Below, one piece after another: positions 35,701-41,700 of a stretch of DNA of 64,000 nt. The notes under the pieces are model-generated. The model saw only the letters and a list, made by a program, of their open reading frames with translations, had not been told where the DNA came from and made no database searches. The stretch is taken from NCBI GenBank assembly GCA_964106915.2, contig OZ066921.1; one strand, 5' to 3'. Made by a program: the position numbers and the translations under genes. Origin of the DNA: Podarcis gaigeae. Taxonomy: Eukaryota. Each line of letters begins with the position of its first letter. The stretch's first letter is position 1.

Positions 35701-38700
35701 TAACACTGGAACTTGTGGACATCCAACACAACTAAATGTTGGGAGATTGAGATGAAATAGAAGAAAGGACTTCTTCACACAGCGCAAAGTTAAACTATGA
35801 AACTCGCTCCTGCCAGAGGCAGTTATGGCCACCAACTTAAATGAATTTCACAGAGGACTGGACAAATAGAAGAGGGACTATTGATGGCTTCTTGCCTCCA
35901 CAGCTGGAGGCAGCAATGCTTCTGAATACCAGTTGCTGGAAGCTGCAGGAGGGGAGAGTGTTTCTGTGCTCAAATCCTGTTGGCTTGTTTCCCACAGGCA
36001 TCTAGCTGGCCACTGCGAGAACAGGATCATGAACTAGATGAACTCTTTTTGGCCTGGTCCAGCAGGGTTCTTCCTATGTTTTAATGTCAACAGAAAGTAC
36101 ATAGGAATCATTGCTGTGGAACCTAAGCAAGACTGTTCCTCCCTCCACTCCCTGAACTCCGCATGCTTAAACAGAGCAAAAGCCAGACTGTCCACTCCCT
36201 GTCCAAATCAATTGCATGTTTCCACTCAGAGGCCCTGCTGCCGGTTCCATTTGCTCTTGGAATCGAAAACATCTCTGCGGTTTCCACTCTGTACTATCCC
36301 CTTTGATTTTAAACTGCAGTTTAATAAAGGGGTGTACAAAAGGCCGAGGATAGGCAGTAACAACCAAAAAGGGAGCAAGAAGGGAGCAGAAATGGCTGTG
36401 CTAGAATCACGCAGCATGGATTATTTCTTTGTTTATAAAAATATTTCATGAAAAAAAGACATACATAAAAATCATACATAAAGCCATTCAATAAAACGAC
36501 TTAAAATTTTAAAATCAGAGATCAACTAGAGACAGTAGCCAAATGATACCCTAAATTTATCCCACATCTTTGTCAGGTTTGCCAGCTATGGCTTTTCCTG
36601 GACTGGGATAGCCTCACCACTGCAGTCTATGCATTGGGAGCCATGAGGCTTGGTTACTGCAATGCGCTGCCCTTGGGCCTGATTCGGAAGCTCCATCTGG
36701 TGCAGAACGCAGCAGCCAGACTGTAGATGGGAGCTGTTGTCCGACAACATGTGACCCCATTGTTGAAACAGCTACACTGAATGCCCACTTACTACCACAC
36801 TGGGGTCAAGGTCCTTGTATTAACTTGCAAATCCCTAAACAACTTAGGTACAGGGTACTCCTGAACCCTTCTAACCCAGCTCAGTCATGGAGATCACCTG
36901 CAGAAGCATCGTTGGTTGTTCCCCAAGTTAGGAGGCCTCATCTGACAGTAACACAAAACTGAACCTTTAGGGTTGTTGGCCCAGCCTTGTGGATTGCTGT
37001 TCCAATAAAGATTTCGCATGTGCCATCTGTTTAAACATTTAAATGTCTGCTCAAAACTTTTCTGTGCCACCAAGTTTTTGCAGACAGTTGATGATCTTTG
37101 ATTTTATCCTTTATGGTTTTATTTGGGTTTTATTGTATATGTATTTGGTTATTGTAAAGTGCTCTGATAGTAATATTTTTTTATGAATAGAGGTAGACAA
37201 GTGGTGAAGAACAGAGTTTTGTTTTGTTTTTAAATGGGACAAAAACCTTGCAAATCTTATTTTCTGGAGGTGGAAGTGGAATGAGTGAATACAACAAAGC
37301 AGCAGCTGAATTGCCTTCAGCTCTCTGGGCAGGCGTGGAGGCAGCCCCCTCTTTGGCTATGGATCTTGGAGGTGTGTCTTTCCTGTCTCTGACCTTGTGT
37401 TGAAGACCAGCAACTCTTTCCAAGAAAGCTGGTTCTTTTTTTTAGGATGCTTAGGTGAACATTTCTTCCCCACCCCACCAGAATCTCAGCAGAAGGAAGT
37501 GGAAGAAATGTTGGAGCAGGAAGGCTTGTTTGATATCACCCACAGCAGCCCCAGTGAACAGGTTGCTTATTTGCTGGTTGAGAGAAGCACCCTGCTGGAG
37601 AAGATAGATGCACTGGAGCAGAAACTGCAATGCCCCAGCTGTTTGGAAAGCCTTTGCCCTGCTCAGCTTCAGGTACATCACCCTTCTTTATTTGGAATGC
37701 TTTTGTATTCTGCCTTAAAGCCCTGAGAGGCTCCCAGAGCAACTTGCAAAAGAGTCATAGTATAGTCTTCATTCAAGTGTAGCATCGGAAACAGAAATGC
37801 CATGGTGTCCATATGGGGCCAGGATTACTGAGACAGCATTTTCTGCCCTAGAATCATAGGGAGCTGCCTTATACCAAGTCATGCCATTGGTCTGCCCTGC
37901 TCAGTATTGTCTGCACCAGTGGTGGACAAAAGCTAGGTTGCAATCTACTGGCAGGTCTCTGGGTGATGTGTTGTAGATCAGCATTCGTTTCTGACGAGGA
38001 CTACAACTTCTGTTGGCCATGCTGGCCGAGGCTGATGGGAATGGGAATCCAACAACATCTGGAGGCCCACAGGCTCCCCACCCAGTTGCACAGGGTCCTG
38101 ACTCAGCAGCTGAATACCAGTGACCTCTCATGGAGGAGAGAACTATTAATGGCTACTAGCCATAATGACTCTGCTCTGCCCTTCATAGATGGAGGCAGCC
38201 ATGCTTCTGAATACCAGTTGCTGGAAGCCACAGGAGGGGAGAGGGCTCTTGTGCTCGAATCCTGCTTACAGGTTTCCCTCAGGGGCATCTGGTGGCCACT
38301 GTGAGAACAGGATTCTGGACTATATGGGCCATTGGCTTGATCCAGCAGGCTGTTCCTATGTTCTTAATGTGCTAGCCACCTCAGCTGGCTTTTTCCTTTA
38401 AAAAATATATATTGTCCATTTTATTTCCAGGTCTCTCTAAGACAGGAAAACATAAGATTGCCAATTCATTTCCCTCCAGATTGATAGGGGAGAAGTATGT
38501 ATATTCAGGGAGCAGAAGAGGTGTTTTCAGATAACACCTGTTCACCCTATAAAACATTATGTTTGTTTTTACTCTCCATGTTATTTATATTAGTACTATG
38601 AAGAAATGCAAGGGGAAGTTACAGATAGGTAGCCGTGTTGGTCTGCCATAGTCAAAACAAAAAAAATTCCTTCCAGTAGCACCTTAAAGACCAACTAAGT

Positions 38701-41700
38701 CAGTTCTTGGTATGAGCTTTCGTGTGCATGCACACTTCTTCAGATACACTGAAACAGAAGCCTGTTTCAGTGTATCTGAAGAAGTGTGCATGCACACGAA
38801 AGCTCATACCAAGAACTGACTTAGTTGGTCTTTAAGGTGCTACTGGAAGGAATTTTTTTTGTTTTGCAAGGGGAAGTGTTTTGGTGAAGTTATGTATTTT
38901 TAATAATTCTTCTTTCTTTCTTCCTTTTTCTTTTTTGTCTAAGGATCACTTGGATCACATCCAGCGGACACTAGAAGATGAGCTTCAGGAGCAACGGAAA
39001 TCTATGCAGTGCACCAAAGAGATGATGCATAAAGTAATAGAAGAATTTGGTCCAACCCTTTTCACTTCTGCTCATGCTGCTTAGCGTTGTAGTGTATCTT
39101 GGGCGCATCAAGGGTAACATGGTGTCAATTGAAAGACAGCCATGCATGGATTTTTTTTAAGGTATCACATAATTCCTGGAAAAAGTTGTTTATAGAAGTT
39201 GTAGTGGAAGGACCAGACACAGCACTGACAGAAACCTTGGGAAATAAAATGGAAAGTCCCCTATGGGATGAAGATCTATGTGAACTTATGAAGCTGTCCT
39301 ATACAAAGTCAGGAGAAGATTGGTCTATTTTGCCCACAGATTTTTGTTTGTTTGTTTGTTTTAATTGATGGGAGCTGTAATCCTAAAAGGCACCACATGT
39401 GCTACCTCTGTACTAGGGGCTGTGTGCTATTGTAAGATGAAGCCACCAGTTTTAAGAAAGCTTTGCTCCACCCACAACCACCTTCCCATCCCTGAGTGAG
39501 AAGCAATGTCATTGGCCCTTAATTCTGCCCGCTTGTGTCCATCTGTTAAAAATGAAGGTTCTGGCACCTAGGATGCAGAGAGGCCATCTCCAGCCAGGGC
39601 CCTTCCTCTAAATATTGTACTTTGTCTTTTAGTCTCATGCTGAAGAGCTGGCTAGACAAAGTGCCTTGCTTAGGCACACTGAGCAGCTCCGGGAGGAAGC
39701 CACACACAGGTTGCAGTTGGCGCAGGCAGAGATCCGGAGGCTGACAGAAGAATTGGCCACGCAGAAGGAAAACCAGAGCAAACTGGGTGAGTTCCAACTG
39801 CTTGCAGCCACTGACAACTCAAACTTTTTTGGCAGACCTTGGCTGTGATCCATTTTTCTTTTCCGGAATATGTCACACTACGTCAATCCCCCCCCTCCAT
39901 CTTACATGAGATATGAACACAAACGAATACATTAAGATGATGTTAACGTATAAAAATATTGGCAACGGCCAAGGGGGCTATAGATCTGTTCTCTTTATTT
40001 GCCCTCAATGGCCTGGTTGCGTATCCAAGAATTTGCACTGCTGTTTAAGGACTGGCTACATGTACGCCATATAGCCAGCCACAGCTAATGGTGCAGCACT
40101 TATAGTTTGGTTTTATCCAAGAGAGTTTTTGAGACGTTTTCAAAGGCAACTTCCCATGTAGCACACATTGCAGGAGTCTAATCTGGGTGCTGTCAGAGCG
40201 TGGGCCACTGTGACCAGGTGATCTCCATCAAGAGGATATGGGGATGGACACAACTTGACACACATTTTGGTATCTGTGCCAGCTCAGATTTATAACTTGC
40301 ATTCACGGCAGTCAATAACTCTCATCTGGGAACTGAGTTCAAGGAGAGAGATATTCAGCCTCTGCCCCAAAATTGCTGTTTTCCAGGAGAAAGACATGGA
40401 AGCTGTTTTGTGAAACACAGGAGGCTCCCCCCCCCCTCCCCGAAGACTTGACAAGTTGGGAATGTGACCCTCTAAAAACTCCTTTTCCCCTCAAGGCAGA
40501 GAGTGTTGCAAAATCACCATAGAACTTTCAGTTAGTGTGGGTCCCAGACTGGCTGCTCTGCTCAGCACAGTCCAACCTCCTGCTCTGCTTTGGTTGATCA
40601 ATTTCTTTTTAGGGCAGCTTTTGCCTCAGAGGGCACGTTCTGCAGAATGTGCCTCAGCCTCCTGACAGCAGTGCGCCTCCCGATCCCTATCAGAGCTGCT
40701 GGTGGATTCATTTTCTGGGTGACCCTCGAGTGCATTGAGCCAGTGAGAAATCTGTTACAATTTGCAAGTGGTGTTTTCTTTTTTTACACTTGTTTGTGTA
40801 TCTATGGCTTTTAGTATTTTGAATTTTATGTTATTCTGTGGCATTCCATGTTTCAAGGTTAGAAATTTATCTAGATAGGCTCTTTAGGTTAAACTTGGGA
40901 TTCTGGGTGATGTATTAAGAAGACCTGTGTGTTTTAATAATTTGTGAAATCTGTTGTAAAGGATTTATTCTACCTCTTCAAAACAAATCAGATGGAATCC
41001 CTGATTTGTTTTAGGTACAAAGCAGCTATTCCTAACCTTTTTCACTTTTAATAGATCACTGTGGGTTATTATAGGTTAACAACAATATTATTTCTTGTTT
41101 TTGCAACGATAGATGAACATGGCTAGTTCCTAGCAATTGCTTTAATGTTGTTTATTGGTGCTCCACACACATCCATTTAAAATATAAATTAATGGATTTT
41201 TAAAAATTAGTAAATAGAGAAGCATTGCCTAAAGCACACAGGCCCCTCTAATCGGAGATTTCTGGGACAGTTCTTCTAGCAGCATTCTTCAGCCTTGGGT
41301 CCCCAGATGCTGACCAGGATCATGGGATTTGTAGTCCCAACATCTGGGAACCCACCGTTGAAGAACACTGTTCCAGCACACTGTTTGTACTTACTGTGTA
41401 TGTGTTTAATTATAGGGACAGCAGTAATCTATAACTCTCCTCCCCCCACCCCCCCAAAAACTGCTCCATTTTTTCAATCAGCTCCATCCATGGCAGAGAG
41501 CTTGAAAGAAGAGGCGAATAAGGTGAAAGACAGTGGTAAGTTGCATGCTGCCTATATCACTTGCTTAGCACATTTGCAGGAATAATTATGATTTGTATTG
41601 GACCAAAGGACAATCTGGTTCAGCATCCTGTTTGCAGCAGTGGCTAAAGAGATGTTTAACAAGCAGAGCATTTAACAAGCAGAGCATGAAGGCAACAGCC

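Follow-up and report, generated by a model that had tools for sequence, protein, structure and literature searches.

The question raised by this locus is how two perfectly complementary arms, each carrying a hammerhead ribozyme motif and facing each other head to head, came to lie in an intron of a lizard gene. The window, that is, the whole stretch of DNA analysed, comprises 64,000 nucleotides of Podarcis gaigeae (contig OZ066921.1 of assembly GCA_964106915.2), and the gene is CCDC30. In this study, the hairpin was found to belong to a 245-nt insertion with a 13-bp target-site duplication (TSD), made up of two ends of a Penelope-like retroelement (PLE) set head to head. A single event probably gave rise to the stub, with reverse transcription of one element RNA primed from both nicked strands of the target, an origin that we hold with somewhat more confidence than doubt.

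An earlier note on this DNA had described perfect inverted arms of 105 bp with a 4-nt spacing inside a 13-bp direct repeat, which the coordinates (38607-38877) bore out. The two arms (38653-38757 and 38762-38866) are each 105 nt long and 100% complementary, with 0 mismatches, and are separated by 4 nt. The repeat, TGCAAGGGGAAGT, forms the left (38607-38619) and right (38865-38877) TSD copies on the + strand. The spacing was correct, but the symmetric 4-nt loop was not, as three of its bases (38758-38760) are element sequence of the left arm, only 38761 at the head-to-head junction is untemplated, and a 33-nt tail on the left had been overlooked. Numbered from a putative RNA start of the parent element, the A of TTTCAGT at window 38769 (+1), the insert consists of the Penelope tail of 33 nt (38620-38652, - strand, +99 to +131); a tailed pseudo-long terminal repeat (pLTR) arm (38653-38760, - strand, -10 to +98), which matches copy L100 at 99.3% over 141 nt; the single untemplated base; and a tailless pLTR arm (38762-38866, + strand, -7 to +98), whose last 2 nt are common to the right TSD copy. 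The insert is asymmetric, since the left arm extends 33 nt further as element tail, and the final 3 nt of the left TSD copy are also element +132 to +134, a microhomology at the tail-end priming site. The putative start (38769-38772, + strand; A+1, G+2, G+4) is a hot spot of 5' ends in other copies. The folding of the hairpin gave z = -28 against 100 shuffles. A TATA box is present at -30 in longer copies and absent from this stub, which was probably dead on arrival because it has neither a promoter nor any element sequence beyond the tail.

The hairpin is a real insertion. A 787-nt contig from a related organism (organism C) passes directly from 38606 to 38865 and presents an empty site with a single copy of the 13-mer, which identifies the 13-bp repeat as a true TSD. 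In organism A, both outer junctions were present in run X1, possibly the source sample, and the left junction in run X3 from a different study; run X4 of organism B had no coverage of the flanks, and no RNA run was among those listed as containing the stretch. The empty site and these junctions show that the insertion is not the fold-back assembly artefact that the earlier note had envisaged. No contig among those listed bridged the hairpin centre. The empty site also agrees with the young age that had been proposed, and a recent insertion into the CCDC30 intron is supported.

The hammerhead cores claimed for both arms were recovered, with all parts on the + strand and a mirror core on the - strand. 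The + strand motif (38772-38809) is a minimal type I hammerhead with a stem I of 4 bp (GUAU, 38772-75, and AUAC, 38806-09), CUGAAGA (38776-82), an extra A (38783), a stem II of 5 bp (38784-88/38793-97), GAAA (38798-801), AGCU (38801-04) replacing stem III, and C17 at 38805, after which the cut is predicted; the tailed arm has its motif at 38710-38747 (- strand), with a predicted cut after 38714. Minimal hammerheads have been described in reptile PLEs, including opposite-strand pairs 100-700 bp apart (PMC4209133). By sequence comparison with that report, the present motif shares the type I conserved core, the short stem I, the bulged base before stem II, G10.1-C11.1 and the palindromic stem III region (15.2-16.2), whereas the pair in the CCDC30 intron is only about 25 nt apart and is known here as a predicted motif. 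An Rfam search, in line with the Infernal check that had been proposed, returned no hammerhead match at E<=10, only generic miRNA hairpin scores below the gathering score, and this miss fits a minimal motif without stem III.

The suggested Penelope pLTR origin was supported by a parent that encodes reverse transcriptase (RT) and GIY-YIG domains and carries the same ribozyme. A pattern search of the 1.51-Gb genome found 9,558 exact copies of the ribozyme 39-mer (4,777 + 4,781), while its reversed sequence, used as a control, gave 0. The parent open reading frame (ORF) ends about 170 nt upstream of the ribozyme, and in copy L099 an 813-aa frame contains RVT_1 (E 4.8e-12), CX4CxxC and GIY-YIG (E 2.4e-5). 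The linker C-NKPR-C-QL-C of the L099 and L100 frames is the CX2-5CxxC motif between RT and GIY-YIG that marks Neptune, as does the order of RT, linker and C-terminal GIY-YIG; Nematis has the linker too (PMC8557442). By linker motif and domain order, the element would be of Neptune type. In longer copies the ATG of the ORF lies about 10 nt past the tail. No intact full-length parent was found among 10 long loci: L237 consists of an inverted tailed pLTR, a pLTR, an ORF with an internal deletion (610 aa) and a tailless pLTR, and the rest are 5'-truncated. The family is young, since at least 74 of 150 scored copies are 100% identical over the last 152 aa of the ORF. Older pLTR subfamilies (seen in L012, L019, L099 and L101; 77-89% identity) have the same ribozyme, and the L101 copy also shows a tail-stub and tailless-arm layout with a TSD.

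Endonuclease-positive PLEs insert as a unit with an inverted 5'-truncated pLTR, a tail of 30-40 bp on one side and a TSD, as reported for Adineta Pen2a_Av (PMC3846280) and elsewhere (PMC8557442). The present insertion has these features, together with a parent with RT and C-terminal GIY-YIG, and resembles Pen2a_Av in its head-to-head pLTRs, one-arm tail, TSD, and TATA box and initiator-like motif in the pLTR. The layout itself (inverted pLTR, one-sided tail, TSD, TATA, initiator) is already published in these two reports. In contrast, the TSD of Pen2a_Av is 8-10 bp and that of the present family 12-13 bp, and the present unit is ORF-less, 245 nt long and represented by more than 1,400 such units.

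Head-to-head ribozyme 5' halves within 30 nt of each other were found at no fewer than 1,475 places in the genome, and pair features were scored on the first listed places. Among the first 50 hairpins on contig C1, 44 combined a tailed with a tailless arm, 4 a tailed arm with another end, and 2 were other; a TSD of at least 8 nt was present in 43 and one of 12-13 nt in 25. A second sample was not selected for hairpins: the first 100 exact matches on contig C1 traced back to 82 events, of which 35 were inverted with tail and tailless arms, 11 inverted with another end, 33 single-armed and 3 other, with 0 tail-tail and 0 tailless-tailless pairs. The arms also share haplotypes. The +50 G/A allele was discordant between arms in 1 of 70 short pairs against 34 expected; among the first 50 hairpins it had been concordant in all 37 that were scored, where L065, discordant on later scoring, was excluded for a second change. 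Of nine distinct long pairs, eight agree at all polymorphic sites; the ninth, L015-L017 (G000:C1:2181177-2182120), differs at 4/8, which could reflect two templates or later recombination. Furthermore, in 30 lopsided junctions examined of 538, the arm reaching the start was tailless and the shorter arm tailed in 23, and the reverse held in 7. In those 23 pairs neither arm copies the other, because each holds sequence that the other lacks. Overlap of TSD and element was scorable in 28 of 51 events and averaged 1.5 nt at each end, chance being about 0.7 nt by a rough arithmetic estimate. Three pairs of loci share a junction, namely L211/L212 (1 kb apart), L235/L236 (0.5 Mb) and L182/L183 (31 kb), perhaps as segmental or inverted duplications, so that a few sampled events may not be independent. 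An ADAR scar was considered and rejected, as the CCDC30 locus has no arm mismatch and the 29 arm differences in the 50 hairpins include 1 A>G and 3 T>C.

On the favoured origin, the element protein, probably a dimer, would nick the target strands 12-13 bp apart. One 3' end would prime at the tail end (+131 to +134) and the other at +92 to +98, each with 1-3 nt of pairing. Both cDNAs would then be extended until the template ends, in most copies at a capped start at +1 to +4 and in the CCDC30 stub at -7/-10, and host end-joining would connect the two cDNA ends. We infer all of these steps from genomic fossils. That the stubs in general record integration from two nicks on one RNA, with the dimer obliged to use the tail-end site on one strand and the tailless site on the other and copying one 5' stretch of a capped RNA twice, seems to us an evenly balanced proposition. 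The Poseidon protein of Anolis was shown in vitro to cut and extend both target strands, has two start sites bounding the tail and is a predicted dimer; uncut RNA is its main template, and the ribozyme requires the protein (PMC11167929). The present family resembles this element (PAc) in the tail between two apparent RT start sites and in showing no sign of a ribozyme-cut template. However, Poseidon PAc belongs to another clade and has its ATG in stem II, whereas the ATG here follows the tail, and the main text of PMC11167929 does not discuss inverted insertions or TSDs for it.

In L1 twin priming, two target 3' ends prime on one RNA to give an inversion within a TSD. The L1 arms represent non-overlapping parts of the RNA, whereas the arms of the present stubs correspond to one shared stretch copied from two fixed sites.

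The 5' ends of other copies bear on the template. Of 100 copies, 57 begin at +1 to +7, with peaks at +2 and +4, 9 at -12 to -1 like the CCDC30 stub, and 34 reach further. In a hairpin-enriched sample of 303 distinct copies, 61 start at +4 and 45 of these have an additional G in front, while 65 start at +2 and 49 of these have an additional T. Tandem copies (L155, L156, L162, L166, L174 and L177-L206) contain the first 40-250 nt of the ORF and then jump back from the ORF start to +2/+4; their short units have the appearance of template jumping at the 5' end of the RNA, and retrozyme-like tandems might be seeded in this way. The pile-up of 5' ends, the TATA box at -30, the cap-like extra G and the jumps to +2/+4 suggest a capped start of the parent RNA at +1 to +4. 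We also considered whether the hot spot is due to a pause of RT at the UUUCAG/CUGAAG hairpin. This was rejected in favour of a true RNA end, because the ends lie in the hairpin loop and not at its 3' base and carry an untemplated G or T. Ribozyme-cut RNA was likewise rejected as the template, as no 5'-end peak occurred at the cut (+38): the short arm starts there in 1 of 30 lopsided loci, a by-eye count found 1 such start in 100 listed junctions of 538, and 0 arms start there in 30 tail-anchored loci.

Among the rival explanations, the one that survives best is a fold-back, in which a single cDNA primes its own copying from its end and an asymmetric endonuclease cut leaves the tail on one arm; for Adineta, an antisense RNA has been proposed in place of the cDNA. 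This is in print as self-priming on an antisense template (PMC3846280) with the tail arising by endonuclease-mediated resolution (PMC8557442). It would account at once for shared haplotypes and for the strict tail/tailless pairing, and the ACAC microhomology with stem II at many junctions is snap-back-like. However, a copy cannot exceed its template, yet 23/30 lopsided pairs are non-nested; the opposite polarity in 7/30 does not fit a fixed cut; the cap-like G points to a sense RNA; and one long pair has arms of two haplotypes. We therefore consider a fold-back unlikely. More doubtful still is two-nick priming from two RNAs, either of one source locus or of different sources with later conversion of one arm by the other. 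Both RNAs could be brought in by a dimeric protein, and the discordant pairs L015-L017, L159 and L065 would be explained, but equivalent templates do not explain why tail-tail and tailless-tailless pairs are absent beside 35 mixed ones.

The earlier note had further raised a non-autonomous mobile hairpin family or a selected self-silencing cassette regulating exon 5 of CCDC30. We regard either as very improbable: the pre-mRNA is predicted to form a perfect duplex at a distance of 77 nt from an alternative exon, the insertion is present in two samples of organism A and the Podarcis isoform P0004 is without the exon, but the 51-mer across the junction occurs once in 1.51 Gb, junctions are heterogeneous across pairs, the layout is simply the commonest insertion outcome of the element (46/82 inverted), and the insertion is absent in organism C, while the exon is also missing in Chelonia, Rhineura and Sceloporus. 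Moreover, the four copies with the commonest junction string must have formed separately, because two have a right-hand tail and two a left-hand tail. A hairpin family resembling miniature inverted-repeat transposable elements is rejected on the same single junction and on the varied junctions elsewhere. Non-LTR retrozymes (bioRxiv 10.64898/2026.07.22.740005) are similarly non-coding, hammerhead-bearing and PLE-derived, but they form head-to-tail tandems, and the head-to-head stub with its unique junction was not taken for one.

Several observations weigh against priming by both nicked strands on one RNA. The Poseidon start sites show no strand preference in vitro (PMC11167929), which predicts tail-tail pairs; none was seen, so that an extra constraint must be assumed for the strict pairing. 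A single template is not universal, because the arms of L015-L017 (4/8 sites), L159 and L065 (+50) are discordant, and gene conversion after insertion is another possible source of identical arms. The arms of the CCDC30 stub start at -10 and -7, off the +2/+4 hot spot, and 33/82 events are single-armed. The RNA start is a putative one, and Penelope of D. virilis uses a TATA-less internal promoter (PMC2377424). Finally, the evidence on mechanism for this family consists of genomic fossils.

The fate of the ribozyme in the host transcript was addressed by folding. The antisense arm is transcribed first in the CCDC30 pre-mRNA, and the predicted pairing was at least 0.997 at 11/11 core positions, in line with the sequestration that had been anticipated. 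The 105-bp duplex would zip up and block the ribozyme as a by-product with no selected role, and the silencing at CCDC30 is probably of this kind and not a purposeful regulatory cassette. Unconstrained minimum free energy folding of a tandem dimer did not produce the active fold. A UUUCAG located ahead of the start pairs with the core CUGAAG, both at 38765-38781 and in every read-through copy. The predicted stem I probability was 0.48-0.79 in 9/12 folds of RNA starting at +1 to +4, falling to 0-0.01 where such an RNA terminates at +98, and was 0-0.05 in 6/6 folds of RNA starting at -60 or -200. A start-dependent ribozyme switch is possible, in which the 6-bp hairpin would keep the ribozyme hidden in read-through RNA and leave it accessible only when transcription begins at the promoter; taken jointly with the obligate two-site dimer, we find belief and doubt in this proposal equally matched.

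The host gene was identified from DUF4686 exons at 52622-57633, whose best named relatives are Podarcis CCDC30 proteins (96-97%). The exon next to the hairpin (38944-39033, + strand) is 90 nt long, in frame and bounded by AG..GT, and matches Podarcis and Zootoca CCDC30 at 90-94%. It is the 5th coding block against P0006 and the 4th against P0005 and P0007, and the distance from arm to exon is 77 nt, in agreement with the position before the exon 5 acceptor given earlier. Among 14 homologue records with both flanking segments, the exon is present in 10 and absent from 4 (Chelonia, Rhineura, Sceloporus and one Podarcis raffonei isoform). Because records without it also come from a turtle and two distant squamates, its skipping, or omission in annotation, is independent of the insertion. 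The pyrimidine tract and acceptor are intact and outside the insert, no sign of selection at the locus was found by sequence-based examination, and an effect of the hairpin on exon 5 is unsupported. Just behind the exon donor, at 39038, an additional 4 bases occur in run X3 of organism A and run X5 of organism C but not in the window or X1. To the left of the insertion, read depth indicates a piece of another high-copy repeat (38200-38400). Older short inverted repeats at 1000-1145, 31966-32059 and 63441-63561 are 75-87% complementary, unrelated to the Penelope arm and possibly akin to miniature inverted-repeat transposable elements.

In the openly searchable literature, with subscription papers on Penelope structure outside coverage, neither a twin-priming account of inverted pLTRs nor a report of PLE ribozymes in Podarcis or squamates was found. 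In conclusion, the CCDC30 locus itself is ordinary, and the value of the family lies in its data on how Penelope makes inverted repeats and tails. The strict tail/tailless pairing, the shared haplotype and the non-nested arms yield predictions that could be tested with the in vitro system already available. The hairpins, of which there are at least 1,475, are young, near-perfect and 90-130 bp long; they represent a sizeable potential load of double-stranded RNA in lizard introns, and the same insertions are good presence/absence markers. If true, priming from two nicks on one RNA would account for both the inverted pLTR and the one-sided tail and would replace the model of antisense self-priming.

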